Shown in pieces: positions 5,166 through 35,800 of a stretch of DNA of 64,000 nt (position 1 is the stretch's first letter; each line of letters opens with the position of its first letter). This stretch comes from Catajapyx aquilonaris (lineage: Eukaryota). The notes beneath the pieces were generated by a model, which did no database searches, was not told the DNA's origin, and saw only the letters and a list, made by a program, of their open reading frames with translations. Made by a program: the position numbers and the translations under genes. The stretch is from the NCBI GenBank assembly GCA_000934665.2, contig KZ538410.1, forward strand, positions 1-64,000, given 5' to 3'.

Positions 5166-5446
5166 GGCTGAATCAATAATTACTACTGTACATAACAATT
5201 GTAATACAAGTAATACGGTATCAGTTTTCATGCCACATGAAGGAAATATATCACAAAAGCGTCTGAGACCAAAAAAGTGACAACTTTATTCACCTTGGTC
5301 AAAAGCATACAAGTTGTCACCTATGACTGTCAGTCACAAGGCAAGTTCATATAAAAATGAAATACTAATGGGAACAGACAACAGAATCAAACATCAACAC
5401 GGGATGCAACAAATGCCCCAATAACAAGAGAACAGGTGACAATCTA

Positions 5447-7309
5447 TTAGGTGTACTCCTGGAAACCGGAGTTAACATCCATGGGCAAGTGAGACTGTCC
5501 AGGACCAGGTGCATGCCCCATCATCTTGGGAGGGTCAGTGGACTGAGGCCTTGGAGTGAAATTTGGCTGTTTGGTCCCTGTGGCATTCCTGGAAACCTGT
5601 CCATGTTTAAGCAAGGTCTTTGGAGGAAGCATACTGACAGGGTGATGGGCTGCCTCAAAATCCTGGGGAGGATCACGCCCCATCATAAGGTCTTGGGCTC
5701 CATCTTCATCAACGTTACGCAAGAAATTGAGCATATTATTCTTGAATTCCTTTCTGCGCTCCTCAGCCTCTATAATCTCATCACCAATCTTGTTCACTTT
5801 CTCTGCTACCTCATTCAGCATGAGCGCCTCCTCTTCCTCCCTCTTCTTCACTACTTCCTGCTTCAGGCGTGTGCCTTCAGCAACCTGCCAAGCAAGAAGT
5901 ACCAAGTGTCTACAGTGAAATACAGGTACTTTTCCAAAGCTGATTCCATACCATCCTTTTCATGTTAGCAGCCAAATTGCTGCATCGTTCAGCCTGACCC
6001 TTCTTATGCTCAAATATGTTTGCAAGGGTTTTTCTGACTGTCGCAGCGATGTCTTCCGCTTCCACTGCGAAGCGAATGCTACCCACCCTGAAAGAGCATG
6101 TGTTATAATTTCCTGCCAAGTGAAAAGATGTTTACAATTACTTTGATTATTTTGTTATCATGAAGCCTAAGCTGTCCCACTGACACATAGTACCACCACC
6201 ACTAACAATACTACAACAAATATCTAATTATAGCTAATTAATAATAATTACCCTTGAATAGGGGAAACTTCTTGTCCCTTGCATTTTATGGCAGCACATC
6301 CAGCTTGTCCCACACTGCAGACTCTGTTAGAGCCCTCAAGGATGGAGCATGTATCATTGCACACCTCGGTTAGACTTTGAGCCGTCTCCTTCTTGTTCAC
6401 ACTCCGAACCATGCATTCATTCAGGTATTCATGTACCTTCTGCGCCAAACTATGAAGCAAGTTATCATCCTCCTCATTTTTCTTTTTCCTTGCCATCTCA
6501 TTTGACCCAATGGCCACCATCACCTGAAAATCAAATTCAGGTCTTGAATACAGTGGCACTGGCTGACAACAGTAGTGCCCTGATTTTTCTACCCCCCATC
6601 TTACCACTTGGTTCGATCTGCGCTCCATATCCTTGTACTTTTCCAGGTTTCTGACACTCACATCAGAAGCAACATCAAGGTGCTCTTTTGCCATACGTAG
6701 GTAGGTCTGCACTTCAGTGAAAGTTGCAGGGTGAGTCGGGCTGAAGTCACAATTAAATTTGCAAATCTTAATTTCTCATTTTGCATGCTGTGAGCCGAGA
6801 AGTCATCATTTACAATAACATACCAGTAGTATAATATACGTGCAGTTTTATATATTATTTTATTTAAGGCATATATGCATATTTTATAATGATGAGTAGT
6901 GATCACTCTGCCAAAATTTGGCAACACTCCCCAGCCCGGCCCCCACTCGGACGTAGTACGATATGCCACAACCAGATGGCGTGTATCCTCCCTCTCTGCA
7001 CACTACTGCCACTTGAAGTGGGAACTGTAGGGTTACTACATGCACCTAGGTGATGAGTCTACCCGTGTAGCATCAAAGAAGTCCTGCCTAGCCAATTCTA
7101 CTTTCTACATGATAATTATAAGCATCATTGTCGACAACTATGAATCTAATGAGAATCGAACTGTCCTTGACACATTTCGAGCACTATTCACACACCCACC
7201 CTCCCCCTCCCAGTTCACTGTACCTCGAGATGGCCGCCTTCCCCACGGCCTTCCCCTGCTTGTTACGGACCCGCTGACCGCCACCACCGCCCAAAGGACC
7301 ACTGTCCAT
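5447..7309 (-). CDS. Uncharacterised ~355-aa coiled-coil protein, 5 exons: 7309-7224, 6740-6605, 6523-6252, 6087-5952, 5884-5447
   Basis: ATG at 7309 (MDSGPLGGGGGQRVRNK...). GT-AG introns with matching phases give a continuous 1068-nt ORF. It has E/K-rich helical segments and a Pro-rich tail, and is divergent from MRPS33. No family recognised. Confidence 0.7.
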
Positions 7310-10700: not shown

Positions 10701-12309
10701 TTTTCCGTCCTGCTCATTAGTACATTGCTAATTAATTCAATGGGTAGCGGCCATTTACTTCCAGTGATACTTGCGTGATGATGTGCATTGTTACTGAAAT
10801 GTGCGGAGGGCGTGGTAGGAACTTGTTATGCATGGGATGTGATGATTTAATTAGGAAAGAGCAAAGCAAGATTGGAGCATGGCCAAACTGGGGCAGGGGA
10901 ACATGGGAATCAATAAAATATGCAGAGAAACAAAAAGGCAGGGACAACCAAACAGAATCTCATTTTGGCTCCGGACCAGCTCCTGGCAACTCAGGTAATT
11001 TAAATTTTGTCACGCTGCACTGCACTTCTTTTGATTGTTGGTAACTACGGAAAATAAGGAATCAACACCTCATAAGAAAATAACAAAAAAAGAGGAGTGC
11101 TGCTAGCACTTCAGCACCCAAGTCCTCAGGGCTAATTTTAGGCTCAAAATTCTCAGTGTATGCACAGTATGGCCTTGACTAGAGGAATTTAAGTGATTCG
11201 CTAAAAAAAGAATTCCGCAGTCTGTTTGGATCATTGGAGAGAGACGAGCTTTTACACTTATGCGAATAACAGGAAGCAGATGGTACATTTGCACCGCACA
11301 CGCTTGGCTAGCGGATAGGTGAGGTAGTCTTGAAGCATCGGCTGTCTTCATGATTTTTATGACTAACACACTGTGATATCCCACTATCTGTGGCTTATTT
11401 CCTGCTTGTCTGGGCTCAAAATTCTCAGTGTATGCACAGTATGGCCTTGACTAGAGGAATTTAAGTGATTCGCTAAAAAAAGAATTCCGCAGTCTGTTTG
11501 GATCATTGGAGAGAGACGAGCTTTTACACTTATGCGAATAACAGGAAGCAGATGGTACGTTTGCACCGCACACGCTTGGCTAGCGGATAGGTGAGGTAGT
11601 CTTGAAGCATCGGCTGTCTTCATGATTTTTATGACTAACACACTGTGATATCCCACTATCTGTGGCTTATTTCCTGCTTGTCTGGGAACAGAATAATGCA
11701 TATGAACTACTGAGTTGTTGACAGCAGTTGTTCCTGCATTTATTTGCGCACATTACATTCATCTTCACATGCCGCTTCAGGTGTCAGTCAGAGTGAGTGA
11801 GGGTCTGCCTGGTGCTACCAACATAGTGGAGCTATTACATCAGTATTGTGAAATGATATTTTGTAACATTTTCCTTTGATTTGTTGATACCGGATTTGTT
11901 AAATTGTGCTGATAACTTGATATCTTAAAGGATTTATGTATCAGTGTCACTTTTGCGCTTCAGTGTTGCTCATTATGTAAGCAGAACTGGTCAGCTCTTC
12001 ACTTTTCCTTTGTGCTGACAGGTTTTGTGGTGCACACTTTTTCACCTGCTGATATAAGCCACGGGCTTGTTGCATAACTTTTTGCCCACAAGCTCTAAAC
12101 AAGGCTGCTGAATGATGTGTCTCAGACTTTGGTCTGTGGGTCACTGCCGTGAAGGTTGGTAAGGTGAAAATATTTCCTGACGATGCCTTTTTCTTTTCTG
12201 CAGAGATGAGCACGAGGACTTCAAGGAGGAGATGAAGCGGCTGCGAGCACTGCGAGGAAAAGGAAAGCCCAAGAAAGGAGAGGGAAAGCGTGCCACCAAA
12301 AACAAGTGA
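7730..12309 (+). CDS. MRPS33: Mitochondrial ribosomal protein S33, 2 exons: 7730-7977, 12204-12309
   Basis: [20 protein letters not shown]...YYPRH...[27 protein letters not shown] is the mS33 signature. One phase-2 GT-AG intron of 4.2 kb. Confidence 0.95.
7985..8220. repeat. Minisatellite, ~6 copies of a ~36-39 bp unit (tgcaatacaatgcacagctcgtggttgtgaaggttaca)
   Basis: Direct tandem repeats immediately after the MRPS33 exon 1 donor. Confidence 0.9.
8952..9096 (+). mobile_element. 5'-truncated SINE/LINE tail with poly(A)
   Basis: ccacccccctaagagggg...ccctctaatggggc followed by poly(A) (spans an N gap). Flanked by a 13-bp TSD catcacatttgtg (8939-8951 / 9097-9109). Confidence 0.7.
9864..10063. 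mobile_element. PIF/Harbinger-like MITE
   Basis: TIR ggcgttcagacgaggcaacttggttgca / tgcaaccaagttgcctcgtctgaacgcc, flanked by TAA/TTA, with internal GCAAC repeats. Confidence 0.8.
10173..10270. repeat. Near-perfect inverted repeat (43-bp arms, 12-nt loop)
   Basis: tattactgactcatgtgattattattacttgtagtacactact / agtagtgtactacaagtaatcataatcacatgagtcagtaata. Confidence 0.9.
11141..11686. repeat. Tandem duplication of a 272-bp unit
   Basis: 11141-11412 is repeated at 11413-11684. I saw one substitution (ggtacattt / ggtacgttt). Confidence 0.92.
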
Positions 12310-12430: not shown

Positions 12431-15400
12431 ATGAAGTACATCATATTCTTAACCCTTTGGACTATAATGGGAAATCTTCATGTGACCACTCCCCTAAGTG
12501 AAGTGTATCCATGCAACAGGTAAGCACAAAGTGCATGTTGTTTTACAGTACCAGTATATACATAATATGTGGATGCTTTAAATTGCCACTCACACAAGTC
12601 CGAGATTTCTGAGATAGTGAAGATAATATGTGCGTGGATCTGTAGTACCCAGAAAGTGATATCACTGATACGAAAAATGCTAGCCACTGCATTAAAACAG
12701 GTCATGATCTCTTATGTCACAGTGACGTCACCACTCTGCTTATGTTCACTCATGTATGATTGTGCAGTGCAGTACTAGAATATTGTAAGAATATGAGTGG
12801 CATGCGAGACATACAGGAAAGTTAGTACCAATTAAAAGCGATATTGATATCACTGTGCAATGAAATATTATATTCCTGTTATTAATAGTTATCAATTTGG
12901 AGTTGAAAATTCCTGCACCGCATAATTATTTATTTTTAAAATATCTAAAAATTTTGTGCCGATACTTTTGCTGCTGAGAATTATCAAAATTGGACAATGT
13001 CGTGAATTTGGGCAGTTCCCGAAGGCTGTCTCCATCACACAAGCGTCACAAATAATAATCACAAAATATTGTGAGGCAATATGGCCCATTCTGACAGGGT
13101 GTCACTTATTAATTTATTTTGAATAATTTTGAAGGGAAGTAGGAACTCACAAAAATGGTAATTCATGCTAGGTCAACCTCGTTTTGCTATAGGTCTAGGT
13201 CTATTGTCATTTGTCAGTGTTGACATTAGCAACGCTCACTGATGACGCATTGTAGAGCAGTAAGGTCAGTGATGTTACATTAAAGGTCTTATTTTGCTGA
13301 TGAAGTCATCATTAAATTTTGTTGCCGTTCTGCATATGATGGCCCTGGAAGCCCGTCACATTCTAAATGCAGACACATGCAAGCACATGTCTGAAGTAGG
13401 CTGAAGGAGCTGAAGTCTAGGGCACATTACACCTGCTGTTGTCAATTGGTGTTTATGGTAGTTTGTTGATCAATAAGATAGAAAATAAACCATGCATACA
13501 TATGACAATGTAGAGTTGAAACTGCAATGAGCTTTTGCATAGCCTGACACCCTGTTCTCACACTTCCCACTTTTTTTGAGAGCATATTTTGAAAACATTT
13601 GATGAATATTTTTATTTGTCTTTTGTGGCTCATTTGAGCTTAACTTTGCATTTCTTATTATCAGCAACATATTCTGCTATGGGCCTGTCCTGCAGACTGT
13701 CCAGTTGTCCCATATTTTCAATGACTCCAAAACCTTCGTGGACATGAAGCTTCAACATCCTCCCTCGGAGGTTCTCCAGGCTTATAATGCCATGATGAGT
13801 GACACCAAACAAAACCCAACCCAAGATGATGTCCGCAAGTTTGTGAACTCGAATTTCGACCCTCCTGGCTCCGAGCTGGAGATCTGGCAACCTACTGATT
13901 GGCACCCAAACCCAAAGTTCATATCGCAAATCTCAGACCCCACACTTAGGGAATGGGCGAAGGAAATCCATGCCATCTGGAAGCAGCTTGGTCGGCGAAT
14001 CAAGCAGGAAGTGGAGCAACACCAGGAGATGTATTCAATCATATATGTGCCGAACCCAGCCATTGTTCCAGGTGGGAGGTTCAGGGAATTCTACTACTGG
14101 GACTCATACTGGATCATCCAAGGTCTGCTTTTGTCTGAGATGCCGGACACTGTGAAAGGAATGCTGGAGAATTTCTTGCTCATGGTCGAACGGTATGGAT
14201 TCGTACCAAATGGTGGTCGAGTGTATTACGAGAGAAGGTCACAGCCACCGCTGCTGATTCCAATGGTTGCCAGTTACTTGAAGGCTCATCATGACCCTGA
14301 CTTCTTGAAGCAGAACCTGGACACTCTGGAGAGAGAGTGGCTATTCTGGTCGGCCAACAGGACAACCAAGGTTAGGATTAACGGGAAGGTCCACCGGTTG
14401 GCCAGGTATTTCGTGGATGTTGGGGATCCCAGGCCAGAGTCATTCAGGTGGGTCTTTTCTAACTATTACTGAACAATTTAACAGCTCAATCGAGGGAGCT
14501 TTCTTCGTTTTACTTAATGTACTTTACTTGATACCTCAGGGAGGACTACCTACTCGTGCAAAACCTCAGCTCAAAGGCACAGGATGACCTCTATGCAGAG
14601 CTGAAGAGTGGGGCTGAGTCTGGCTGGGACTACTCCACTCGATGGTTTATCAATGCAGCAGACCCGCAGGATGGACAGGAGAACTCGACACTTCTGGACC
14701 TCAAGACCTCCAAGATCCTTCCTGTAGACCTTAACTCCTTCCTATGCATGAATGCCCGCCTCTTGTCTGATTGGTTCAGGGAGACAGGCAACACGACTAA
14801 GGCAACCCAGTACGAGAACTATGCCAATGAATGGGCGGAGGCCATACATGATGCGTTTTGGGATGACAAAGATGGCATATGGTACGACTATGACGACGAC
14901 AATAAGTCACCCCGACGCAGGTTCTACCCTTCAAACATTGTGCCACTGTGGGCGGGTTGCTACAACAAATCTAAGGCGAATGAAATTGCGCGCAAGGTGG
15001 TCCAATACCTCCGGAAAGCAAAAGCAGTCCATTATATCGGAGGGGTCCCAACATCCCTGCGTCACTCAGGCCAACAGTGGGACTTCCCCAATGCATGGCC
15101 TCCCTTGCAGCACTTCATGGTGGAAGGACTGGATGCCACTGGATGCGATGAAGCAAAAGCATTGGCCAGAGAGCTTGCTGAGAAGTGGATCGCCACCAAC
15201 TGGCTGGCCTACAAAGAGTCAAACCACTCCATGTTTGAGAAGGTGAGAAAGTCACTCTAATGCACGCAAATGAAGAATACTAATGGTGTAAATGCTTCTC
15301 TCAAAGTACGATGCAACAGTATCTGGTCTTCCTGGAGGTGGAGGCGAGTACGATGTCCAGCTGGGGTTTGGTTGGACTAATGGAGTCGTCCTGGACTTCC

Positions 15401-18042: not shown

Positions 18043-20949
18043 TCAGACAAATGCCTTGTCAGCGTAAGGTGTAACGGGTATTCCTGTGGGATTGGCTGTC
18101 CGGAGCTGGTAAAGCAGGGACTCCTTCTTCTTCCTCTCTACTTCCTTCTGCAGCAGTGTCTTGGGTCTCACCGAGAGAGTCAGTTGTCCACAGAACATGG
18201 AGTGAATAATCTTCCTGAGGCTGTAGTATGCAAACTGGAAACTATTAGAATTGATCACGGCATAGAACATGCCTGGATGGTCCAAATTGTACTGCAGGTA
18301 CACCTCTCGCAAATCAAGTGCTGCCCTTGCCTCGGCACACAGGGCAGACAACCTGGACTGCTTAAGGCGATCATTAGGTAGCAGGTATTGCAGTGGGACT
18401 TCCCGAATATTCAGGTCACCAAGATCAAAAGGCCACTCCTTCTCAGTTACATTCCTTGTCTTGAGGCCATCCAGAGTGGCGTTATCAAGTGGTTCCCATT
18501 CAGGAAAATCATCGGTCATAACATTGTTGATGACATGCTTGAGTCGAGAGGTGTGTATCTGCTCATCCATTGCAATGACCAGAACGGCACGAGCATGGGG
18601 ATGAGACATTTTCATGGTCAAGGCAGCTTCCAAGTCAAGAGTGATGACTAGGACCATCCGTCGGACTGCAGCTGTTTCAAGCTCCCTGCGAGCCAGACCA
18701 TACCTGTGAGGGAAGAAAGCTGGTGTAATTTACTTGTAAACTGTTGTGAAATATATCCTTCTGATCCTTTATGCATGCAGGAACTGTGTATGTATACAGC
18801 AAAGAATAAGTCATTTTTCTTAACCTCCTGTCTCCTACCTACCTGTCGCCAATTTTGCTGAATGTTACGAGAAGGGTGCCGTTGTTCTCCATTTCATCAA
18901 ATTCTGCTGAGGTGACAAAGTGGTGCACTTTATCAGTTTCTCCAGGGCGTGGGTCTCTGGTGGTGGTGATGCATCCATACCAACCCCTCCCCGGGAGGTT
19001 CTCGCACAGATGGAGTGCTAAATGGGTCCGCAAGCTGCAGGGTGGGCCTACCAGCACAAGTATGGGATTAGGCGCAGATCCAATAGGGAAGATATCTGGG
19101 GTGATGCGAAGGGGCTGCTGCAATTGAATGAGGATCTGGCGAGCATGTTTTTGGATTGCCTTGTACTCCATCGAAGGCTGCAAAAGCAAAGTTGCATTCA
19201 TCTGGTGGAAAGAGAGAAACGCATATTATTTGGCGTTGTTTCCTCAACAAATCAAAATTGTGGAGGACACTGTACCCTATCCTCCTCGGTAACAGGGTCA
19301 TTATCTATCATCATAATATTGGGCAGGCTGAAAATCAACATCTCTCTGTAGTGTGGAAACTCAGCCAAAGGATTGCCCTTCATGGACACCTCCCAAAGCT
19401 CGCTGATATGATGTAAACTTCTCAGATCCTGCACGTTGTGGATTTTATTATCTGAAATATCAGACAAAATTCAAGATTGTAACATTGACCTTATCTAACG
19501 ACTAACGTTTAAAGGGGTCTCCATAGTTGTCTCCAGGCTAGTCCTTATTCTTAACTTTCGGATGTGCCTCTCAATAGTGGGCACTTCCATCCTTTAAAAA
19601 GTTCTACCATTCTGATTGGAAGAACCTTAGAAAATGTTGCAGGACAAGTACTAGGGCCAACCCAGGGACTCTCCAAGGAACCCCAGCCTAATAGTTACAG
19701 ACGTGTGAGATCTAATTCTCTAAGCTGGTAGTGACGTGTCAGGTGTTCCATCGAAGTGACAGAGTTGCTACTAATGTCCAGCTTCTGCAACAGTTCCAGG
19801 TGCACAATGCCATCGAGACTGTCCAGATCGTTGTTAGTCTGAATGAGCACACAAGTAAGCCTATAAGTAATCCACTCCAGCAATAAAAATCACACCAACT
19901 ACCAGTTACAGTATTGTGAAGAGGTAGCAAGAGATCATTCGAAGTGAATAATGTAGCAACAATTATTTTTATATTCATTCTACGGCGACTCCTGAGTGCA
20001 CTAAATTTTATTTGATCGTAAGAACTGTGTGTATACCATTTCCACACAGCCTTTCAGCAATAATTCCCTCCCTCTCTTCTCTCTCTCTCTCTCTCTTTGT
20101 CCTCTTTCCCCATAAAGATCAAAATGCAATTAAATTTCTCACCAGCAAAAGAGTTCGCAAAGGTAAAGTTCCCATAGGGCAAATCTTCGACACATGGTTG
20201 AAGGACACATCTAGGTGGCGCAGGTAACGAAGTTCAGACAAGCCTTCAATGACACAAATCTGGTTGTCTGAAAGTCAACTGTTAAGTCAAATCACAATAA
20301 AATATGCACAATGTTACACCCTACTTCTCCAATACAGGCCACAAATTAACAAATTAGACAAATTTAACCCAAATTCAAGGATACGACATAACATGAGCTC
20401 CTGTAGGGTCCAAAACTCGGATAAGTTTGGCATGTTGCTGATGTAGTTGTATGAAAAGTCAGCTATGGCCAGTAGTAATGGAGCTTTAAACCCCAGCAGT
20501 CTCTCCAGGCAGTTATGGGACACATCTAGTTCAGTCAGGTATGGCATCCATCCGAGGGCAGAGAGATCAGTCAGCTTGTTCCCTCTAAGGTTGAGGTGTC
20601 TCACATGACACAGCTTCTGCAGGCCCCAGATTTCATCGAGAGACTTGTACGCCAGATTCAGTTTCACATACACGTAGGCTTTCCCATCTTGCGACAAGGC
20701 AGGGCCACCTTCCCAGCTGGGGGCAATCACATCATAGATGGTCGGCAAGTTCTGCTTTTCAGAGCTGCCATTGCTGGCATCACTCTTAGTGCTCTTGGTG
20801 TCACTCCATTTGATGCTCTTGATGCTCTTGGTGTCAAAAGATGTGCTATCATCTACGTAGCCGCTCTTTAAGGATTGTGACTCATCTGTGGTAGGGGTGG
20901 CTGTTGCCAGTGACGCTGATTCTTCCTCCTTCACCGCAGGCAGGGGCAT
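18043..20949 (-). CDS. LRGUK: Leucine-rich repeat and guanylate kinase domain protein, 6 exons: 20949-20385, 20267-20143, 19838-19703, 19451-19276, 19201-18843, 18703-18043
   Basis: SDS22-type LRRs (LRHLDVSFNHV, LQKLDISSNSV) and an LRR cap GNPLAEFPHYR, followed by GK motifs LVLVGPP, TTTRDPRPGE, HHFVTSAEFDEM and DRYGL. All phases are consistent. Confidence 0.85.
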
Positions 20950-21497
20950 CTTGACGAAAAGAATGTGTTGTGATCTATCATTTCCTAGGTTACACTGGTG
21001 TCTTTTTAAATGTTCATTCTTGAATCACATTTTGAGCTCAAGAAATATTAATTTTGTCCTTTAGCTTTAGAGATTTTCTTTTACACTCCAGCAATAAAAA
21101 TCATACCGACTACCAGTTACGCAGGATGCTTACAGCACATCCCCACTTCACTGGCAGCGTAAGAAAAAGATTTCATTATTATTCTGAATTCAGTTAACAT
21201 ATTATGTAAGAATATTTATATATATTTATAGGTTGCACACAGTAGTGGATTCCAAATGAAATGCCTGCAGTGGTTACTGTTTTTTTGAAACTAATCTGCA
21301 ATTATTTCCAAATAGCTTTAGCTTTGAGAATCCTAACCATGAAAATCATTGTTATGAAACGTTTTATTACTATTCTTCTTGTGTCGGTGTTTCATGTGTT
21401 TCATATCTTTTCCCACACTAATTTTTTAACTGACCACCCTTAGGGTGACAGGCAATCTGAGAAGGACAAAGAACAAAATGCAGGTGGCAATCCACCA

Positions 21498-23086
21498 ATG
21501 TCCATGTACTCATCAGAATCTGAAGAGGATGAGAGTATGTAACTATAATAATATTATGAGCACTGTTAGTTTTACAACATGCTTATTAAATTACTTTTAC
21601 AGAAAAAGGTAAATTACAAGATGAGGTACTCGAAGAGCGAGAGATAGTGGCATTTTCCCTTTATGAAGCAGTGGAGGAAGTACAGGCAGAAAGATCAGGG
21701 AAGATGGAAGAGTTGTTGAATAGAAGATTGCAAGTTAAAGGCCATGGTAGAAGAGGTGAAGTGATGGACAGCAAGGAAGTGATGCTGTTGCAAAAAATGT
21801 ATGAAGAAAAAATGAAACATGGTGGCATAAGCTTCTTTGATGACATAGCACACAGAAAAATCCCTTGTGACAATGTCATCAATCCTCAAGTATGGTACTA
21901 CAGGTATGTTAGCTATGCTTACATTTGTCTATGTCAGTACCAGCAGGAGTTTCTTACTAGAAACCAGCCAGCACAATAAACATAGATTCCATTCCTGCTT
22001 TCTACTGCATGAGGAAAGCACAGGACGTTTAGTCTCTAATTTCACTGAATTCTGGCTCTGAAAAATCCAATATAATTGCATAGGTGGCTGAGGAGAAAAC
22101 CCCCTAGCCAAACTGTGTCGCATGTCAAAGTTGAGAAAGGTCCTGTCCAGAAGCCAAAGACGGTGGAACGTGATGCGGATCCCCCACAAGACACTTGGGT
22201 TGTGCTTCCATTTAATGAGCAGGCTAATTTAGAAACACCACAAATGGATCACTGGGTGGAGACCAAGAATGCAGCTTCGCTAAGGAGGGTTCTCTTCTCC
22301 CAGATTCCAGACGGGCTTCTGTGCATCCAGTATCCTTTTATAGCATCTGTCTATTTTGCTTGGTCCACTAAAATTTTTGGTGCAAATGGTGCTTGATAGT
22401 GTATAATGGAAAAGTTAAAGTTAGCAGACCAAGCGATGCAGAGCTGAGATGCTGGTCTCAAAGTGCTGCAAATTTGTAAATATTTTTCCATCATAGTGTC
22501 AAATGGACACAGAAGGCACCAAGTCATAATTCACACTGTTTGATAACACATAAAGAAGGAAGGCCATGTAACTTTTTTGAGAGAACCTATTTTTGCAGGC
22601 ATGGATGGGCCTGGACGACCTTTTTAATGCCCTGTATTATCCGTGTTCATTCATGTGCCACTTGAGTATGCATCCATAAAGGTTGAGTCCTGAACTGTCT
22701 CCCAGATACTACTCAGGCAACCTTGCTATCTCCCAGATCCCAACCCGTTCTGGCCCAAGCACATTGGCTTTCAGGGACAGTAACAGGTCAGGCATTCTCT
22801 TCATAAGCACCCCTGAAGGCCTTTGCTGGCTGTTCGATAAACGCAAGCAGGTCCGTCTGGAGTTCGACAATGGGAATGTGACCGTAATTGATAAAAAAGG
22901 CAAAGTGACCGAATGCTACTCTTGGAATGAGCTCAATCGAGAACCTTTATCCTTCACGATTGGCCGCCACATCAGTTTCCACGTAGACAATAACAAGACA
23001 TCACTCTCCTTTCGGGAAATGCAAGAACTCTTTAAGGTCAAGATCGGTCATTTCGTTATGGAAAATAAAGATGACAGCGATACCAC

Positions 23087-23165
<79 letters not shown>

Positions 23166-23182
23166 GGCAGTGGCAGTGGCAG

Positions 23183-23219
<37 letters not shown>

Positions 23220-26200
23220 GGCAGCAGTAGCAGCGGCAGCAGCAGCAGCAGTGATGGTCTCTCTGTGGATTCAGATAGTTTGGATAGTCCAGACAGCGAC
23301 ACAGAGGAAGTAAAGAAAACACAGAAGGTAAAGAAAGGAAAGAAAACACGGAAGGTAAAGAAAGTAAAGAAAAAACACAAAGTAAGGAAAGCTAGAAACA
23401 CAGAAAAGAGTCACAAATTGAAAGAAGATCAAGGAAAGATGGCCGCTGTTAAGAAAGTAGCAAAGGTGGAGATGAAGAAGTTACAATGGAGACGAGGACC
23501 ACATCGAGCAAAACAGCAAGTCGTCAAAATTCTTGAGGTTATCAAAGAAACTGATTACCCATTCCCGAATAGTGATTGGCAGGGGGATAATAAAGAAAAA
23601 AGGTATGCCACAGGTGTTGCTATAAAGGAAGAGATAAGTGAACAAGGTGGAAATACCAAACCAAAGATGAAAATTAGCAAAAAGGCGGCTCCCCCTCACA
23701 GAACTAGAGTTGATAAAAATCAGGATGACGACGAAGAGGATAGCGACCACTACGATTATTATACTTCTCAATATGAAGACAAGAATTATTACAGCGACAG
23801 TGACACAAGTCTACTATTGTGGATTCCAGAGCCAGTGAATCGGTTTCAGTCCAAGTATGAGTCCCCGCAGGTGACAAAACTCGCCCTTACATCTGGTAAG
23901 TGCAACAAAAGAATATCAAAGTGTACTGTATGTTACACATACTCCCTGAAACCCAGTTTCACCTGCGTTATTGGAAGACACATGGTATTATTGCACCAAG
24001 GCGCTAACAAAATCTGAAACAATGCATAGAAATGCTAATATTACTTTTCTAATTCATTTTTTGTCACATATTCCTCACGAACATATGAGATAGAAAGAAG
24101 GGAGCTGGTTTTCCATTTTGCTTTTGAACGTGCTTCCACTTCATAACCGAGGTACACATTTAAAAGTAGCCCATGGTCTGTTTACCAATTTTATGCAAAT
24201 AAGTATTGTAAGTAATCTCAGTTTCACTCCCCAGCCATCAATCGCTACATTTTCTGGTACTTTCCCAGGCACAGAGAAGAAGTATCTTGTAGTAATCAAG
24301 CAAATATTATCTGAATTCCACACCTTGGTCGCACAGGCTAGAAAAGCCCTAAAAGCTGGACGTGATGCTGGGTTTCTCCAGACAGAAGAAAACATGAACT
24401 TACAGGAAAAACTCAAAACACGTTACGTCCATACATTTTCCACTTATGCGAATTACTACCAGGAAAATCAGGACATTGAAGTAACTCTAGGCGACCCTTG
24501 CTTATTCCAACATCTCCAGAAAAATGTAGATCTTAGCAAAAGGCGAAAGGCAATGCTCATGCCTCTCTTCAGCCACCCTAAAATTTTCTCCGGAGATTTT
24601 GAAAGTTGTGAGAAGCTGTTTGAAGAAAAATTTTCAGCTATGAATGCAGATGAGGAGGAGCTTCAAGTTCAATTGGATGAAAAGAAGTCAAGAAAAAAGG
24701 AAAATGTCTCCCAACAAAAGACGCCCCATATCCCATCTCTTACATCGGCTAGAAGGAAAAAAAGGGCAAGGACTCCAGTCAAGCCAGCAACAATAAGTGA
24801 GAATGAGGATGACAGATTTAGACACTTGCAAACTGTCATGAACACTGTAGCAGCAGATACACATAAGGGTGCCTCATCCGACAAATGTGGCAGCGTACCA
24901 CTTCCAATTGATTTTTCTAAATTCGAAAAATTAGAGACTCTAACAGACATCCAACTTAAGGAATTAACTCAGGTTCAACCAAAATCACAGCGAGAAGAAA
25001 GGTCTCGATATCTTCCAGAGAGCATGTATGCCACGACGTTCAGTCCACCAGCTGCTAGACAGCCCCAAGATTCTAAACTGACAGACCTTGCCAAACAACC
25101 TGCACAACCTGAACCTGCTGTCCAATCACAAGCAACACCTGACTCAACCTCACAACCTCAATCTCACAAAACGTCTCCTAGCTCTGCAACATCTCCACGA
25201 TATCAGAAAGTAAAATGCAAAAAACCTAAAAAACAAACACCACAGCACATGCCTGATGACCAATCAAAAGCAATAGCTGCAGCAAAATTGAAGATTTTAC
25301 AATGTTTGAGTCACGAAGAACCCGTTAGATCTGCATTATCTCCACATCTTCAGGAAAGGATACTCTCACAGCTTCAAAAACAAGCATCAGAGCAATCGCC
25401 TGTTGTTCAGGCAAGAGCAAAAGCCATAGCACAAATGAAGGTTTTACTACTTTTGCGTCGCAAACAAGCCATTAGGTCTGAAAAAACTCCCCACCGCCAG
25501 AAATTGAAACTCAAACAGCTTCAAGAGCAAATATCACAGCCCATGCCTGCTGTCCACTCGAAAGAGCAAGCCCTGGCCAAATGGCGAGTATTGCGATATT
25601 TGCTTCTCAAAAAATCTAGGTCTGCAACGTCTCCACGCCTTCACAAGAAACAACATGAAAAACCAATATCACAGCCCAAACATGCTGGACAATCAAAAGC
25701 AAATGCCCTCGCAAATGTGCAAGTTTTGCAAAGTATGCTTCTCAAACATTCCCCTGGTCCCACAAGAACTCAGTGCCACCGGCAATTGCTCTTCACTGGA
25801 CCCCAAAAGCAAATCTCACGACCCAAGCCTGATGTTCAATCAAAAGGAAAAACTCTAGTAAGATTCCAAGATTTACAAGATTCGCTTCCCACAAAATCTC
25901 CAAGCTCCGCAAAAACTCGACGCCTCCAGGAAGTGAAACTGTCAGGGCCTCAAAAACTAGCACCACAGTCCAAGTTTGCAATTGCTAAAGCAAAGGTAAT
26001 GGTTTTAAGGCATCTGCTTATTAAAAAAATCACTAGCTCTTCCAAAAAAACTTCACGCATCAAGGAATTGAACCTGGCAGGATATTGGCAACAAATCTCA
26101 GACCCCAAGTACGTTCTCCAATCAAATGCAAGAGCTCTAGCAATATGGAAAATTGCACGACTCTTGCATCTTAAAAAATCTGCTGCGTCTGAAAAAACTC

Positions 26201-29200
26201 GGCTCCATGAATTGAAACTCAAGGGAACTCCCCAAGCCAAGTCTGCGACCAAATCAAAAGCAACAGCTAGAGCAAAACTGAAATTTCTGCGTTTGTTTCT
26301 CAGAAAGATTCATGGGCTGAAGATCAAAAAAACTAAACCTATCCAAGAACCTGAAATAGAAACACCCAAACATGAATCGAAAGTTCCATCTTTTCCTGTC
26401 ATGCATCCTCAGAAGTGCAAACCCACAGGAATTAAAAAACAAACCCCACAACCCATTCCTAGTGCCCAATCAAAAGCAAAGCCTAAAGCACAATCGCAAG
26501 CTTCAGATGAGTCTAAAAAGAAATCTACAAAGGCAAAAGGCTTACTCCAATCAGAATCTGAGCTAAAAGTGACTAGAGAGCACGAATCGCATAAAAGGAA
26601 AAAACCAAAAAGGGGATCCAAAAAGTCCAGAAGCCCCGAAATATCCACGAGTACCAAACGATCCAAAAGTACCAAACGATCCAGAAGTACCAAAAGGCCC
26701 AAAAGCAGAGGCAAACCCAGAAAGCAATCTCCAACACCTGCCCCTGCCCCCCACTTGACAATGGCACCGGACACTCTCAAGAAAGTGTGCATTGGTGGAA
26801 AAATCCTGTATATGACTGCTCAGCAAATCCAGAAAGTTCTCGAGAAATTGAAACACTTAAAGCAGATGCATGACAAGACCAACAGAATAGCTTCCCCACG
26901 TCACAAGGTCACCTCTCCCCATGGCAAGATTGCCTCTGCACACGGCAAGAATGCCTCTCCACGTGAAAGAAAGACCTCTCCACAGCATGACAGAAAGGCC
27001 TCTCCACGGCGTGACAGAAAGGCCTCTCCCCGTGGCAGAATTGCCTCTCCACGTCACAAAATAGTCTCTCCACGAGGCAGAACACCTGCCAGGTTCGCGT
27101 CTCCAAGTGCCAGGATCAGATCTCCACATGTCAGGATCGCTTCTCCACACGCCAGGATCAGATCTCCACATGTCAGGACCGCTTCTCCACGTGTCAGGAT
27201 CATTTCTCCACGTGTCAGGATCATTTCTCCACGTGTCAGGATCACATCTCCACATGCCAGGATCGCTTCTCCACACGCCAGGATCAGATCTCCACATGTC
27301 AGGATCGCTTCTCCAGGCGCCAGGATCGTTTCTCCAGGTGTCAGGATCATTTCTCCACGCTCCAGGACCACATCTCCACGTGTCAGGATCATTTCTCCAC
27401 GTACCAGGATCCCATCTCCACATGTCAGGATCGTTTCTCCACGTGCCAGGGTTGCCACCCCAAGGAGCAGATTTGCCTTGCTTCTTGACAGAATTTACTC
27501 TGCATGTGCCGAGCCAGGGATTTATAATGGGCCCAAGGTTGCCTTAGAAACGAGGAAAACAACAGTTCCTGCCCCATACAATTTGCCTAGAATGCCTAGA
27601 CCTCCAGAAGGTACAAGTCCCAGACGAACCCGGAAAGCTACTTCACGTGTACCAGCCAAGAGCACACGCCAAACGATGAGTGTGTCTACAATAAAGGGTG
27701 CTTCCTGGAAGGATAAGTCAAATGAGTCGAGCAAGGCTTCATCCAGGATGCCCTCACTCTCCAAGGTATCTCAAGCTCTACTCCGTGAAGGTGAAAAAGC
27801 AAGTAAGTAGGAAGCATTTCTTTGTCACTCCAATGCTGTGAAATCTGTCCCTTATTACCAAAGCAAATCAATCAGACAAAGCACCTTGTTTTCTGTGTGT
27901 AAATTAGACCCAAAAATAATAGGCAGTATTGAGTGTAGACATCTCATCCAGTAGTTTTCACTTTCATTAAATCCATTCATGACATCATCTCCAACAGTGG
28001 GATAGGATAAAAAATGACTAATTACTTACTCCAGGCATGCATGCACTTTCCAACTAGTAGATCCAGATGTGTAAATAGGAATGGAGTCCACATAATTATG
28101 TAACAGGATCACATAATCCATCTTTAATCTGCCACACTGCTGGCATGATACCACCCTCTATGCACGAAATGGCTAATCAAAATGAATAAATTCCCAAAAT
28201 CAGGTAGGATAAGTTGCAAGTGTCTTTACGTTAACGAGGGTGATATGTCCCGGTAAATCAAAGCATGATTTTCCTTGATGTACTTTTCCCATATACACAT
28301 CAGGGAAAAGTATTGTACGAATGACACACTGCAACACATGAAACTGCAATGAGGGATCGAGTGTATGGGTTAAGCCATGAGCAAAAGGTAGGCACATAAT
28401 AATGAATAGCAACCTGGCAACATGAGTAAGAAACAATTATATGATGCTTTAATTATTATGGAATGGCATAGATAGTGCTGATCAGGGTGCTTATAGCAAG
28501 ACGGACAATGGTTGCAGCAACAAGTGAATAACACTAACATTAGAATGGCAAAGATCACTTTCAACAACGTAATTGATGTCAGTTCCCCTCTCAGCTCATG
28601 GGGAAAAGTCATGGATTGATTTTTAGTTTTTCAGAACCAACCCCATTCATTTCAATTACCCTTCTTAAATTAAACAATTTTTTAGAATCTAATCTTACTA
28701 GTGCAGTGTGAAGTTACAATGTTTTTATTAACTACTTTTCTGCACAGCACGGGATTCAAGAAAGCACATGACTCGCCAACATGACCTGTCAGCCTCCTAC
28801 ATGAAGCAGGGACCCCCTCCCAACCTATTGAAAGGACCACCTCCCAGCCTACCTCGAGGGCCTCCTCCACTCAGGACGGCATATACCAGCAAGCATGACA
28901 ACATCAGTGCCAAGCTGACACAGGCAGAAAAAATGAGCTTGTTGGTCAGTGGTGGCTCCCCATACTATCAGTCGAAGGGCATGAAGGTGCAAGAGGAGGT
29001 CACATCTAGCAATAATCTGCCAGGGCAGCGGTATGTTGAATGGCACTGTAATTGGAGTAATTCCTACCATCAAATTTTCATATAGAATGTCATGTTTTTC
29101 ATGACTTACATTAATGTGAAACAAAAATCACTTACACTGCATGAATAGTAATGTTCCACATGCAAACCAATGGGGTTGACTTACAATCATGTTCGGGCAC

Positions 29201-32200
29201 TGATCATCTGAATGGCGAACCCTGGCTGTGCTATTTTTTAACCAAATGGAAATAAACTTCACTCAAGCAACACTGAGCACATAGCATTGTGTAGCATTCA
29301 GGTAAAGTAAGGTTGAGGAAGCCAAGAACTATCCAAAGGCAATACTTTTCTACTTTCCATTATTTCTCGGATGCACGGGAAAAGGAGCATAAGATTTTTT
29401 TTTTTTTTTTTACTTATGCACTTTTTCCCGCTCATCCGAGATTTATGCTTCATAATTTTCGTAATTTTCATGAGGATTCAGGCAGATGAGTTAAGGAAAT
29501 TAAGGAAACAGTATCACCAAAATTGAGCAGCTGTGATTGGTCCAGACCTCATACATCTGCAACATATTACTCACCCACTTTCCTGCAGGATGAGCCACGA
29601 GTGGGTGCGGCCCCCAACACCCCAGCCAATGAAGAAATCCACCTTGTGCCCAGCAGTTCTTCGCCAACAACATATGGAAGTCATTTCTAAGGAAGCTGTC
29701 CTCATTCATGCAACCCGCAGTCGCAACCTGCCTCGACAACCCAAGCCCGTACTGTGTCCCCCTGGAGGAAGCCTCCGTGACAGGGCTAAATTCGGGCCCC
29801 CAGCATGGCGCCAGTGCCTCTGCAAATCAAATGCTGTTCCCGAAGTGACAGACGTGGAGCTGGATGACTTTCTGCATCAAGCCCCCCGTGGAGTCCCCGT
29901 CCTGGTGCATGTGGTGGACTCCCAACTGGGAGGGTCAAAAATGACTCCTGAGATTTTACGGTTGTACAGGATAATCCGGGATGCTGGTCCTGACCCAGAT
30001 AAGCCATGCTTTGGCAACACTAGTGACTCCTGCTTCATCCTTCAGTATGACATGGCCACAGCTGATGCAGTAATTAATCACCAAGCAGGGTGCTTGTTGA
30101 AGCGTAGGAACAATGTCCAGCCTGACACTTTCTTGGTGAGTTCAGGGAGTGTAATGGGATGCACCACCTCTGGTCTCTCCCTTTACATATTTTATTTCTT
30201 AATTTTATTTACCCCGTTGAGAGAGGACAGCGCTCTTTTAGGGGGGTGGAACACCACCATTTTTCAATCAATTTTCTGTATATTATTTTCGAACTCCATG
30301 CAGGGAAGAAAGGACAGGAGGTAGGGATGGGGATTTTTGGAGAGGAGACACAGGTCCTGGTGCATTGTCTGAAACTGGGTCTTGTGCAGTCTCCCTGGAG
30401 GTTAGGTTGCCAGAAGCCTCCAAGGAGCGGGGCAGAGACCCTCCCAGGCGGGGATTGAACCCGGGACCTTCCACTCAGCAAGGCGAGTCGTTACCAACTC
30501 GGCCACCCCCTACCCCTCCTTTTAATATTTATAGATCTTATAGAGGTTTCAAGTGATTTTTCTTGCTTCTTGGCAGCACATGCTACAAGGCAGGGTTAAC
30601 CTCATGATTCCCACACACATATTACAAACATATCAGGATTAAATTCACATTTCCTATTTGAAGGTTCTAACAAGCTCACTCGATAGTGAGGTCATGTGCT
30701 AGAAGATATCAGGACATTCTGCTTATATACCCTTCGTACTTTCAAGTCTCCTTAAGCCTCAAAAAGACCATCAAATGTAAGGCAATGAAACTGACATCTT
30801 TCTGGATCTGTTAATGGGCGCATGTTTTTTTATGCACTGACTCGAAAAATGATGTGCATATCTGCATCTCCTTGTATGCAATTATTTTACACTTTAATCA
30901 AGGTGTAAGTGACAGGGTCATAAATATTAATGTCCTGCCCCATCTAAATGGCAAGTTTTTAATAATAATAAAAAACAAAAAATTTAATGAACATGCCAGT
31001 TTACTCTACAAATTCCTGTCCCTTTCTTTCCGTTTCTCAGTAACTTATTTTCATAATGACAATCAGCACTAGTGCAATCACTAGTATCAAAGAAATTCAG
31101 GGCACTAGCAGAAATCACAATTTGGCAATAAACTAATAAAGTTTAATTGAATACAGTAAAACTTCTATAAGTCAAACTTCCCTAAGTCGAAGTTCTCTAT
31201 AAGTCAATGAAAATGATGAGTTTGGTTGGTCACAATGTAAAAGAATAGGAAATAAACTTCCCCAACTCGAAGTAGTTCTCCATAACTCGAAGCGCAGGCA
31301 AGGCCTTACGATGGGATATCAATGCATTTTCAGTCTCCCTAAGTCGAAGTTCATGTTGCAAGTCCGGAAAATTTTCTCATTTCCCAGCTGAAGGGTCGAG
31401 AGTAGGCCACATGTACAGAAAGGCTCAATTTCCTGATCTCCATCTACCAGACATACAGAAAGAAGTGTTTGACTTCATTGTGACAATTGAATCCTTGAAT
31501 CTAAGAGTAGGCAAATGTCCATAACGGAGCTTTTTGTTTACAGCAAAACAATGAGGAACATTGTGAGATAGTGACAGTTGTTTTTAAGTTTTGAACACCT
31601 TTCGTTGCTGGATATAAAGGTAGGCTCCTTATAGTGTCATGAGCTTTAAAAAATCCAAACTTCCCTAACTCGAATCTTCTACAACTCAGTTTTTTTTCCG
31701 GTCCCATGGAGATTCGACTTATAGAAGTTTTACTGTACATGTAAAATTGCTCTTGCACCTAAATTAGAAAATACCCAGGCAGGTATCCATTACAATTCCC
31801 CTCTCCAAAAATTATTTCTATCGTTTCCCCCCATCTGGTTTGGTTTCCCTAGACTTCAATGCCAAAAGAGTTTTGCCATTACCACTCAGTGCAAGCTCAA
31901 ACAGTAACTGTTCCAATTAGGCCCAACATTTCACATCTGATTTGAACAGTCAAGTCCCTAAAATTATAACATAAACTACCGTCATACTGCAACATGCAAT
32001 AAAAGTTTCTTAATAGGATACAAACATACATACTACCTTTCTTGGAACCTACAGAAAATTACACCAGGTCGATTAAAACAATTATTCTATCAATGTTGGG
32101 TGAGTAAACATTGTGCTCAGATATTGCCCTGATCTTTCCAGATATATGAGAATGGTCAGCTGCTTTTCTGTGACCAGGTATTTGATGGGTTCCATCTGGA

Positions 32201-32288
32201 TCTGCAACATCTGTGCAGCCAGCTGCACCGATGCCATGTCATGGCCGAATCCAACGTTCACATCCCTATGGACTTCAAATATGAGTAA
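21498..32288 (+). CDS. C3orf20-like (FAM194-domain) protein, ~2094 aa; exons 21498-21534, 21603-21903, 22084-22329, 22706-23895, 24269-27802, 28748-29030, 29589-30135, 32142-32288 (true start may be further upstream)
   Basis: DGLLCIQYYSGNLAISQIP...DKKGKVTECYSW resembles the FAM194 domain. CPAVLR...CLCK...PEVTDVELDDFL...LQYD...IYENGQLLFCDQVFDGF...IPMDFKY resembles the C3orf20 C-terminal region. All seven junctions keep frame (6285 nt total). Confidence 0.75.
23085..23252 (+). repeat. Coding (AGC/AGY-GGC)n trinucleotide repeat encoding a poly-Ser(Gly) tract
   Basis: About 55 codons, mostly Ser, inside exon 4 of the C3orf20-like gene. Confidence 0.92.
26884..27465 (+). repeat. Coding 21-bp tandem repeat encoding ~27 S-P-x-x-R heptads
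   Basis: Units such as tctccacgtgtcaggatcatt, encoding SPRVRII, SPHARIA and SPHVRIA. Confidence 0.9.
30193..30516 (-). mobile_element. tRNA-derived SINE, family B
   Basis: A box TGGCCGAGTTGG and B box GGTTCAATCCC. Homologous to 33456-33775, with an A-rich tail. Confidence 0.82.
31154..31735. mobile_element. pogo/Tigger-type MITE
   Basis: TA-flanked TIR cagtaaaacttctataagtc / gacttatagaagttttactg, with internal repeats of taagtcgaag and a subterminal GGTCCC. Confidence 0.85.
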
Positions 32289-32862
32289 GTTGATGTCTCC
32301 CTTAACTAGTTGAAGACTTTTGAGTTTGTCCAAAATTGCATGCAATGAAATTAATACACGCTCACATTGGTAACATTTAATGAAACATGTGGTTTTGGTC
32401 CACTGATTCCAGAATTACACACAGATTCTCACATTAAATTTTTGGGTTAGAGTGTGACAGTGTACCAAAGCATTCGTTAAAGCACCATAATTACCTTCTT
32501 ATAGTTAAGCAAGAGTTCATCAACATTTAAGAGCTCAAAAGTGTCTATTAACATAGTTGCACATGAAATTTTATCATCCTTGTGCAAAAAGAGCTGTCCC
32601 TGAAGGTCACGAATGAATGAGACATGTACTGTTTCAGTTGAATGCCCTGCTCTTGTGCCTTTAAATTCTGGTACTGATGTGTATGCATATATGCTTCAAA
32701 GTTGCACCCTGAAGATGCCTTGTTACCTTTCAAAAGTGACTATAATTGCAACAGGTCACATCTCACAACATCACTTCCAACTTTTCTCCTTTTCACCTCC
32801 ATTTGTTCCATGCTGGCTCAAAGTATATCACACCAGTAGAACAACCGCACTCAAAATTTTTG

Positions 32863-35800
32863 TCATGTGGGGCAGTTTTCCTCATCATCTGAGTCGGAAT
32901 CCTCCTTCTCTGTCGACTGGATTCTCTACACAAAAATTACACTGTTAAGAATCATGTGCAAATCTTTAAAAATATGTCACAGAAACACTAACCACTCGGA
33001 GAAGGTCAATTAGCCTGGCAGGATCACCTCCTGAGCACACATCCAGCACATCAGTGGGAACCTGGTAGTATCGGTATGGGCTGGGTTGCACCCCAAGGTC
33101 AGTGGTCACATACCTGAAAGCAACATCTCGATTTGGCTTGCTCTCTGAAGCAATCTGGTAAAGTTCCTCCCAGGAGAAGAGGATTGAATCAGTGGTTGCA
33201 CCAAAAGGATTGAAGTCAACCAGCTTCACCACATCCTTCTCTGAACGCACCACGTCAAATACATCTGGGGGACCAAAGGAGATAGTGTATATTTGCAGTA
33301 GTGCAGATGAGCATGCATCATGAGCAAAAGTTAAGCACAATATTGCCCTGAAAAACTTCCCGCTACACCCCTTGAGCAGCATTCGTGCCTCAAAATCCTG
33401 GCACAGAAAGTTGTATATTTTTGTTCTTCACTCAGCCAATCAACAAAAAGGACAGAAGTGTGTGTGTGTGTTTTTTTTAACCCCGTGATAAGGCTGAGCC
33501 TTTTTAGGGGGGTGGAATACCACCATTTGTGCAAGGAGTCAAGGATGTAGGGTAGGGATAGGGATTTTTGGGGAGGGGACACTTGTGCAGGTGCCTTGTC
33601 CTATGGCTTTTGGGCCATGTGCAGTCCCCCAGGAGGTTAGGTTGCCAGACACCTCCTTGGTGCAGGTCAGAGACCCTCCCGACGCAGGTGAAAGGAAAGT
33701 TCCCCAGGCGGGGATCGAACCTGGGGCCTTTCACTCAGCAAGCCGAGACATTACCATCTCGGCCATCTACCTCCCCAAAAAGGACTAATGTATTTGTGAC
33801 AAATTCAAACATTTAAAAATATACACCGTCACACATCAAGGTATCCTATGCGAAAACTGCAATCCAGGTCATGGTCATATATCACNNNNNNGGGGGGGGG
33901 GCTTGTTTTTGACGAAGTACAGTATTGCATAGTGTAATATTTAAATTAAATCTTGAGTGTGTGTTTTGAGGTGGACAGGGGTGGGGTGTGGGACGGGTTG
34001 TTTTTAGGTTTATTCTCATGAGTTTTATTAGTTCATATGTTGGGTTAGCTTGCGTCTCCCTTCATTGCTGACTACCCCTCATAGGGAAATGTCATGATGT
34101 TGTTGTTGTTGTTGTTGTTGTTGATGCTTTGAATAATCTGTGCATTTCAAATACTATAAATATAATACTTTCTTGCAGATACCACGAGGTAAAAGCTCCA
34201 TCAAAGGTTCCAGCAATCAAACTGCTGGAACCACGTGCCACCTTTCGTAATGACGACGTGAGCCCAAGTGAAAAAAAAAGAACAGGTGGTGTCAGGAGGT
34301 CTCCCAGGCCATAAACAAGGTGCATAAAAAAAACTTCCTGAGTAAACTCACAATTTCGAAGAGGGAAGTATCCTCGAATCTTCTCCTTGTAAAAACTCTG
34401 TATATCACGAATGATGTCCTTGGATTCTTGCTTTATATGTGCATAGCAGTTAATTCCATCTCTTTGGCTGGCACCTGGAACAAAGAAAAAAAGTGTAATG
34501 TAAATATAAGCGTCAAATATACATCTTTATTTTTACACTCACCAATGATGTTTGAATCATACACAAAGCATCGAAACTCTGTGCTTGGGTTCACATCTCG
34601 CCATTGCCTCAATACAAGGGTATATTTCACTTCACATGGTGTTGAGGCATCATTGCAGTCCTGTGAAGAAATATAAGTCACTTTTCACAACAGATATTAC
34701 TTGAAAATTCAGGGGTAACTAATATGAATTCTTTACTGTAGATGAATTTTTTACGAGCACAACTGAGTGCACACCCACACTCGAGCAAGTCCATTGTTCT
34801 GACAACAGGAAGAGTGGGTGGTTCCAGAGGTGTGTTCGACAGATTTCTTTGACTAACTTAGTAAGCTAAACGTCACAGTCATGTTACGCTGGGTTGACTG
34901 TAATATGGCCCCGATAAAAATTTGCCGCTCTAGGCAGTTGCCTACTTTGCCTATTGGAAAATATGGCCCTGCATACACCATGTACAGTAGTAGTACATTA
35001 AACACCTCTGATTAGCTCATTTTTACCATGTCTAAGACCATCTTCCAATTATCCGTGTTTTCTGATTATCTGGCGACACCTGTACATACATCAGCCTGGA
35101 TAACAATCGGGAGTACAGTGCTGGACATTAATTCCATCATACTGCTAGCAACATTTTCCGATGTGGCAGACGTGCAAATCGAAGTGATGGAGTATGAGCC
35201 ATGCGAGTAAGAAATGGTAGCCCTTGGGTGACGTCACAGGCTGGAGACAAGCCTTTTCTCCATTGCCCCCCAGCCTGTGACGTCACTCAAGGCCTACCTC
35301 TTCTTACTCGCACGACTCACACTCTATCACTTCGATTTGTACTTCTGCCGCATCAGAAAATGTTTCAAGCAGTATGACGCAATAAATATCCAACATTGTA
35401 CAATGTATACCCAATATTATAAAATTTCTTACCTTGAAAGGTTGTGTTAAGTCATGCGTCACAAAATCTGAGCTTTTGAGCAGCAGGTAGATGTCTGAAG
35501 GTGTGGTGCACTTCAGTGAGTTGTTGAGACCAATCCAAGATGCATCCTATGGGAACATCAATATTATTACAATATTATACCAAGTATTATGAACTTATTT
35601 GTATTTGATTTCCATTCATTTTTGTTGCATTACCTTCGGTGCACTCCAGTTGAGTTTGACAAACACTGCTCCTCCTAATTCTGCTATAGCACCTTTCACA
35701 GCTTTGTCAAATTCAGGAAAAGAAGGTCCCTGGAAAAACAAGTGGAAATAAATACAGTAGAATCCCGATTAGTATCCGACTGTCCCACTCCGGCAATAAA

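Follow-up and report, generated by a model that had tools for sequence, protein, structure and literature searches.

The FAM194 family of proteins (Pfam PF14977) includes C3orf20, ERICH6, and ERICH6B. In C3orf20, a second, N-terminal domain of unknown function stands beside the FAM194 domain, and the human protein is about 904 amino acids (aa) long. We know of no function for C3orf20 or its FAM194 relatives, and a literature search on C3orf20 found no functional study among the 25 titles and abstracts listed, out of 41 papers. Another family member, ERICH6, is listed as testis-specific in human (PMC7436996). Here, we describe a probable member of this family in Catajapyx aquilonaris. The gene lies in a window of 64,000 nucleotides (nt) (GenBank assembly GCA_000934665.2, contig KZ538410.1, positions 1 to 64,000 of the forward strand), to which all positions below refer. 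The model of the gene (21498-32288, + strand) comprises eight exons, and the fifth of these (24269-27802) is an unusually long one that encodes a strongly basic segment. We lean, if only by a little, toward the reading that exon 5 is a true coding exon, internal to a single FAM194-family gene with multiple exons, and that it would have grown in place as a low-constraint, basic, disordered linker.

What argues that this stretch is coding at all? Exon 5 sits within a plus-strand open reading frame (ORF) that extends from stop to stop over 24094-27807 and is the longest in the window, at 1238 codons compared to 447 for the runner-up. The initial annotation was right that a long ORF exists here but gave it as 1230 aa, a length that the stop-to-stop count of 1238 codons replaces. 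Within the exon itself, the coding frame has no stop over 1,177 codons, while the remaining five frames have between 29 and 70. When the exon was shuffled 500 times by mononucleotide, the longest ORF averaged 121 codons and reached 279 at most, with none of the 500 shuffles above that value.

The boundaries of the exon point the same way. The acceptor reads ctttcccag/GCA, with its AG at 24267-24268, and the donor reads CAA/gtaagt, with its GT at 27803-27804. In-phase alternatives were scanned over 24094-24499 for acceptors and over 27400-27809 for donors; among them, no pyrimidine tract is richer than that of the exon 5 acceptor (0.75), and the exon 5 donor is the sole full GTAAGT. The partner sites are the exon 4 donor after 23895 (CTG/gtaagt) and the exon 6 acceptor before 28748 (ctgcacag/CAC). 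A second in-phase AG is found 6 bases downstream of the acceptor (cag/GCACAG/AGA). This is a possible tandem acceptor, the use of which would move the exon start to 24275 and remove two codons.

Could the ORF instead lie within an intron of the FAM194 gene without being joined to both neighbors, either as a transcription unit of its own or as an alternative first or last exon? The frame does remain open through the 58 codons preceding the acceptor, and the ORF has in-frame ATGs. Against this, the phases fit at both ends, the acceptor matches the consensus, and the stop of the ORF falls inside the donor region, with the GTAAGT positioned 5 nt before it. Exon 4 is, moreover, just 373 nt upstream. 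We therefore consider a nested unit very unlikely.

Returning to an internal exon of a single gene, a scripted join of the eight exons gives 6285 nt, which translate to 2094 aa followed by a TAA with no internal stop. All of the introns are GT-AG and range from 68 to 2006 nt, and the phases agree throughout. This reproduces the figure of about 2094 aa that had been put forward for the whole protein. The initial annotation had also proposed that a phase-1 acceptor at 24268 and a phase-1 donor at 27803 join exon 5 in frame, which was verified on the sequence, and that the exon, being symmetric (3534 nt), could be skipped. The join without exon 5 indeed keeps an open frame, of 2751 nt and 916 aa plus TAA, a result of arithmetic only. 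Exon 5, which makes up 56% of the coding sequence of the full model, would probably be overlooked by gene callers that rely on homology. At the far end of the gene, the proposed stop codon of exon 8 (TAA) and a GTAAGT overlap (32284-32290), and splicing after 32284 to a further exon is conceivable.

The assignment of the gene to the FAM194 family comes from exon 4. The first 128 residues of its ORF match the Pfam FAM194 profile with an E value of 7.1e-9 and 35.7 bits, compared to a curated gathering cutoff of 27, in line with the earlier suggestion that the exon preceding exon 5 is FAM194-like. Positions 1-27 of the profile are probably on exon 3. Positions 157-202 were not found in exons 4, 5, 6, or 7 when these were scanned singly against Pfam. 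Scanned in the same manner, one by one, the exons other than exon 4 gave no match, and no family was matched by exon 5. Exon 7 matched nothing in Pfam or PDB and gave no usable lead in the ESM Atlas.

How does this gene compare with the FAM194 and C3orf20 proteins that have been described? It shares with them an exon 4 that scores above the family threshold, an acidic N terminus, and a probable U12-type intron adjoining the domain, a U12 intron being reported for mammalian C3orf20. In addition, the 916 aa of the form lacking exon 5 are near the length of about 904 aa of human C3orf20. The basic exon of 1,178 codons and the long poly-Ser and K-rich expansions of exon 4, by contrast, are not known from the described mammalian FAM194 proteins. 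The neighborhood is different as well; the neighbors here are LRGUK-like, trehalase, major facilitator superfamily (MFS) transporter, importin-beta, and ribophorin I genes, which are not known as neighbors of human C3orf20. Judged by its sequence, the gene would belong to the FAM194 family and is probably a C3orf20-type member.

Intron 3 bears on the same question. Its donor is GTATCCTTT, a perfect U12-type donor motif, and a branch-site-like TCCTGAAC occurs at 22688-22695, 10 nt before the acceptor; both were judged against the established consensus motifs of U12 introns. The pattern RTATCCTTT has three matches on both strands of the window, compared to 1.09 expected, and one of the three is located exactly at the in-frame donor of intron 3. 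According to a supplementary figure legend in the TOGA2 preprint, intron 5 of mammalian C3orf20 (4930590J08Rik in mouse) is a U12 AT-AG intron of phase 2. Intron 3 thus shares phase 2 and, probably, the U12 type with the mammalian intron as reported in that legend, which fits a C3orf20-type gene, and the two introns may occupy the same position.

In composition, exon 5 has the polycationic, K/R/S/P-rich character that had been claimed for it. It encodes 143 K, 106 R, 41 H, 29 D, and 55 E residues, for a net charge of +165, together with 36 SP dipeptides. The charge is not evenly spread: residues 1-300 are about neutral, and each later block (of 100 aa, or 77 aa for the last) carries +12 to +25. 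There are six runs of at least three K/R residues. In any 50-aa window, R accounts for at most 26% and K+R for at most 46%.

About half of exon 5 consists of tandem repeats belonging to three families (Table 1). They were defined by eye and then confirmed by protein alignment, a DNA-level repeat search, and Tandem Repeats Finder. The first family has a unit of approximately 47 aa with the consensus P..QSKA.ALAK.KVLR.LL.KKS..S.KT...QEL.L.G.QKQIS.PK. and, when a degenerate ninth unit is aligned along with the eight, a pairwise identity that averages 29%. At the DNA level, this repeat shows spacings of 147, 147, 135, and 147 nt (families D3 and D4), and all of the DNA repeat spacings in exon 5, these four and one of 630 nt, are multiples of three. 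The second family is a short array of hexapeptides that falls inside the most basic part of the exon. The third is an array of SP-anchored units, mostly heptads, in which the interval from one SP to the next is exactly 7 residues in 19 of 23 cases. The SP codons of this array are nearly invariant (TCTCCA in 22 of 24 units), and over 27083-27450 Tandem Repeats Finder reports a 21-nt period with 17.5 copies and a 42-nt higher-order period with 8.8 copies. Because the SP codons are almost invariant and a higher-order period is present, the heptad array is, to judge by its sequence, young or homogenized. That internal repeats make up about half of exon 5 while exon 4 also carries repeat expansions points to growth in place. 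At least half of exon 5 would thereby have been built in situ by three separate tandem amplifications, those of the 47-aa unit, the hexapeptide, and the heptad.

What has been maintained while these repeats diverged? A comparison of the eight 47-aa units gives identities of 0.53, 0.56, and 0.54 at the first, second, and third codon positions, respectively, and the proportions of nonsynonymous (pN) and synonymous (pS) differences are 0.43 and 0.54. The copies have drifted nearly neutrally at the amino acid level, and the frame has stayed open. Drift without stops or frameshifts, with spacings in threes, suggests that the region is selected for read-through and composition rather than for a fold. 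The amino acid sequence itself would be little constrained, with the open frame and the basic, Ser/Pro-rich composition being what is maintained. Reading through the exon is of consequence only when the mRNA that contains it is also translated into the exons downstream, so the pattern indirectly favors the inclusion of exon 5, and we infer that the mRNA includes it.

Several well-known classes of basic or SP-rich proteins invite comparison. The segment had been called protamine-like, a description that does not hold. It shares with protamines a net positive charge and, possibly, a germ cell context (from a neighboring gene and from the expression of the family in mammals). However, R makes up no more than 26% of any 50 aa, compared to roughly half or more in protamines, and the exon 5 segment is 20-fold longer and lies within a large multidomain protein. 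The minor-groove-binding S/TPKK (SPKK) repeats of the sperm-specific histones H1 and H2B also consist of short tandem units in which Ser-Pro stands beside basic residues and the serines are phosphorylatable. The unit here is instead a heptad, SP[RHG]xRIx, in which positions 6 and 7 are hydrophobic, and only 2 of the 47 [ST]P sites in exon 5 fit [ST]P[KR][KR]. A third likeness is to the C-terminal domain (CTD) of the RNA polymerase II subunit Rpb1, where heptads likewise follow one another in a long tandem array and every unit has an invariant SP. The consensus of the CTD is a different one, though, and the array here is basic rather than neutral and has no polymerase attached, so that the likeness comes down to the period and the SP. 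Like the basic repeat regions of microtubule-associated proteins of the tau/MAP1B type, exon 5 is long, Lys-rich, and Ser/Pro-rich, with many sites for proline-directed phosphorylation; it differs from them in lacking any sequence or Pfam match. Nor does it look like an arginine/serine (RS) domain: there are 19 RS/SR dipeptides in 1,177 aa, no runs of them in the listed heptad units, and no RNA recognition motif by Pfam.

Does exon 5 have relatives elsewhere? A phmmer search against 1.84 billion representative proteins (E values up to 0.001) returned 381 matches, of which the best 150 were examined. In all of these 150, the best stretch lay within exon residues 852-1140, and none of the 150 contained anything like the unique 850 residues of the exon, in a library that includes animal proteins. 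FAM194 was found by Pfam in none of 32 matches (898-2778 aa) that were chosen from the best 150. The matches were rejected as relatives: the 32 belong to mutually unrelated families that include SEA mucin, HECT, Rpb1, RFX5, TAF4, and fibronectin, and two pairwise alignments showed bare period-7 proline repeats with 18 to 22% identity. The Rpb1 match (P0016) aligns through its C-terminal heptad repeats at 39% identity, which we read as convergent. Another match, P0013, has a run of ISPKDRI-type units with 49% identity to the heptad array and is likewise read as a case of convergent SP heptads. Searches of the PDB by sequence and with a profile of the repeats found nothing, and a metagenome scan with exon 7 gave 127 pattern matches, none of them confirmed.

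These searches bear on the proposal, made in the initial annotation, that the exon reflects a lineage-specific fusion, in which capture placed a separate gene for a protamine-like or otherwise basic protein after the FAM194 exon and before the C-terminal exons. In favor of capture, exon 5 forms one block without interruption, its phases are symmetric, and its nonrepeat part was unmatched among the best 150 of the 381 phmmer matches. This lack of matches carries little weight, since the conserved flanks also found nothing in word-indexed searches. The anatomy of the exon, half-filled by three kinds of internal repeats and adjoined by an exon 4 that shares the tendency to expand, speaks for growth in place rather than for fusion. 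The composition is not protamine-like, no Pfam family is recognized, and remnants of an earlier start, stop, or untranslated region were not seen, though none were sought. We regard capture as improbable.

A more serious challenge comes from the repeats themselves. Near-neutral divergence would equally fit an exon that is usually skipped, and one can imagine exon 5 as a cassette that is mostly left out of the mRNA, the form of about 916 aa being the working one and the long form being minor, tissue restricted, or inconsequential. That skipping preserves the frame and leaves a protein near human C3orf20 in length agrees with this idea. On the other hand, both splice sites are strong, and 1,177 stop-free codons in the face of approximately 45% divergence between the copies require selection on the frame. 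A mostly skipped cassette thus seems to us unlikely.

Beyond the divergence of the repeats, other observations also weigh against the interpretation of exon 5 as a translated, disordered part of a FAM194-family protein. A search of sequencing runs with exon 5 matched no RNA run. All six frames run through the heptad array without a stop, so this part of the exon does not by itself define the frame. The FAM194 match covers only positions 28-156 of the 202-position profile, with a modest 35.7 bits, and exons 2 and 3, when scanned singly against Pfam at E values of up to 5, gave no family, although a domain split by intron 2 could escape such a scan. Word-indexed searches with exon 5, with the FAM194 part of exon 4, and with exon 7 (the latter two against longer proteins) found no orthologue. 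Given that the conserved flanks, too, are without a match, coverage of this gene family is doubtful, and the blank for exon 5 is not to be read as absence. A test of the 47-aa units as amphipathic helices failed: the hydrophobic moment was above most shuffles in just one of the eight, being reached by 35 of 500 shuffles for that unit and by 182 to 396 of 500 for the other seven. Finally, single-sequence AlphaFold models are too poor to speak to disorder or fold, with predicted local distance difference test (pLDDT) values of 45.6 for exon 5 residues 1-325 and 34.7 for exon 7. The low-confidence model of residues 1-325 has some predicted helices in residues 1-150.

If exon 5 is indeed a translated part of the FAM194-family protein, what might it do? 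It would connect the FAM194 domain to the C-terminal domain by a long linker that is polycationic and disordered. Such a linker could hold the protein on a polyanion, be it nucleic acid, chromatin, or the acidic tubulin tails, and phosphorylation of the 36 SP sites could switch this binding off. Disorder, binding partner, and tissue are here all deduced from the character of the segment and its surroundings. Our best inference is a disordered, phosphorylation-sensitive tether, with nucleic acid and microtubules both being candidates for what is bound.

Should exon 5 prove to be expressed, it would offer a concrete handle on the family, as a huge, phosphorylatable, polyanion-binding linker hints at the site of action of the protein and at the assays to use. 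It would also be a clean example of a coding exon that grew by repeated tandem amplification with only frame and composition kept. If, however, such an exon is usual in relatives or is a rarely used cassette, this would be an ordinary low-complexity expansion.

Table 1. Features of the FAM194-family gene and of its surroundings in the 64,000-nt window
Feature	Position	Strand	Description
Exon 1 (proposed)	21498..21534	+	ATG (putative start codon), acidic N terminus; ends in phase 1 at AGA/gtatgt
Exon 2	21603..21903	+	ttttacag/AAA to CAG/gtatgt; in phase with exons 1 and 3
Exon 3	22084..22329	+	Ends CCA/GTATCCTTT, U12-type donor
Intron 3	22330..22705	+	Probable U12-type GT-AG intron, phase 2
Exon 4	22706..23895	+	FAM194 domain, then poly-Ser tract, K-rich 27-nt repeat, acidic tail
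Trinucleotide array in exon 4	23087..23251	+	165 nt, 55 copies, 80% matches, (CAG)n register; poly-Ser with some Gly
K-rich 27-nt repeat in exon 4	23308..23405	+	Tandem Repeats Finder
Exon 5	24269..27802	+	3534 nt (1178 codons), both ends in phase 1; isoelectric point 11.0, net charge +165
47-aa unit (approximate length) x 8 in exon 5	25249..26385	+	Units of 44-50 aa; exon residues 327-705; protein alignment and DNA repeats
18-nt repeat in exon 5	26650..26705	+	3.1 copies; (K/R)S(K/R)ST-type hexapeptides; part of the 50-aa stretch with the highest K+R content (46%)
SP-anchored units x 24 in exon 5	26914..27456	+	Exon residues 882-1062; mostly heptads SP[RHG]x R I/T x
Exon 6	28748..29030	+	ctgcacag/CAC to GCG/gtatgt
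Exon 7	29589..30135	+	182 aa; cctgcag/GAT to TTG/gtgagt; no family match
Exon 8 (proposed last)	32142..32288	+	48 aa plus TAA
MFS/sugar transporter	3475-4488		Pfam
Trehalase	13606-15257	+	Two ORFs (288 and 242 aa); profile positions 2-475 of 512
Leucine-rich repeat gene	19255-21024	-	Pfam
Importin-beta	50002-50568	-	Pfam; N-terminal domain
Ribophorin I	52733-54002		Pfam

The genes of the window are closely packed. One of the neighbors may be informative about where the FAM194-family gene is used. The minus-strand ORF 20317-21024, the first coding ORF of the leucine-rich repeat gene, is arranged head-to-head with the gene and ends approximately 470 bp upstream of exon 1. Its best match among solved structures is the leucine-rich repeat and guanylate kinase domain-containing protein LRGUK (E value, 5.7e-27), a protein of spermatids and flagella. 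The two may be sperm- or cilia-type genes that share a bidirectional promoter. Together with the testis-specific listing of ERICH6, the LRGUK-like neighbor makes expression in germ cells or ciliated cells plausible by analogy. Taking this further, one could picture exon 5, with its K-rich 47-aa units and its CTD-like array of 24 phosphorylatable SP heptads, as a polycation gained in this lineage that serves as a new kind of basic protein in sperm. It would anchor the conserved FAM194 module to the axoneme or to chromatin undergoing condensation, and including or skipping the symmetric exon would be the on/off switch, a scenario to which we give little credence.

A few observations concern the other genes and the repeats of the window. 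The trehalase gene has few introns for an animal gene. The ribophorin ORF has about 64% identity to human RPN1 over 162 residues, counted by hand. At 45998-46006 (- strand), ATATCCTTT is an AT-AC-type U12 donor consensus among minus-strand ORFs at 43.9-48.7 kb; with these ORFs taken as an importin-beta-like gene, it may mark another U12 intron besides intron 3. At 11141-11684, a stretch of 272 nt is duplicated perfectly in tandem (100% identity), which reflects either a very recent event or an assembly artifact. Rfam recognized no family in the 64-kb window. A dispersed 156-nt repeat occurs at 477-632 and 5427-5582 with 85% identity, and short stretches resembling tRNAs or short interspersed nuclear elements (SINEs) appear in ORF translations near 4913-5179, 30242-30553, 33498-33785, and 47971-48276.

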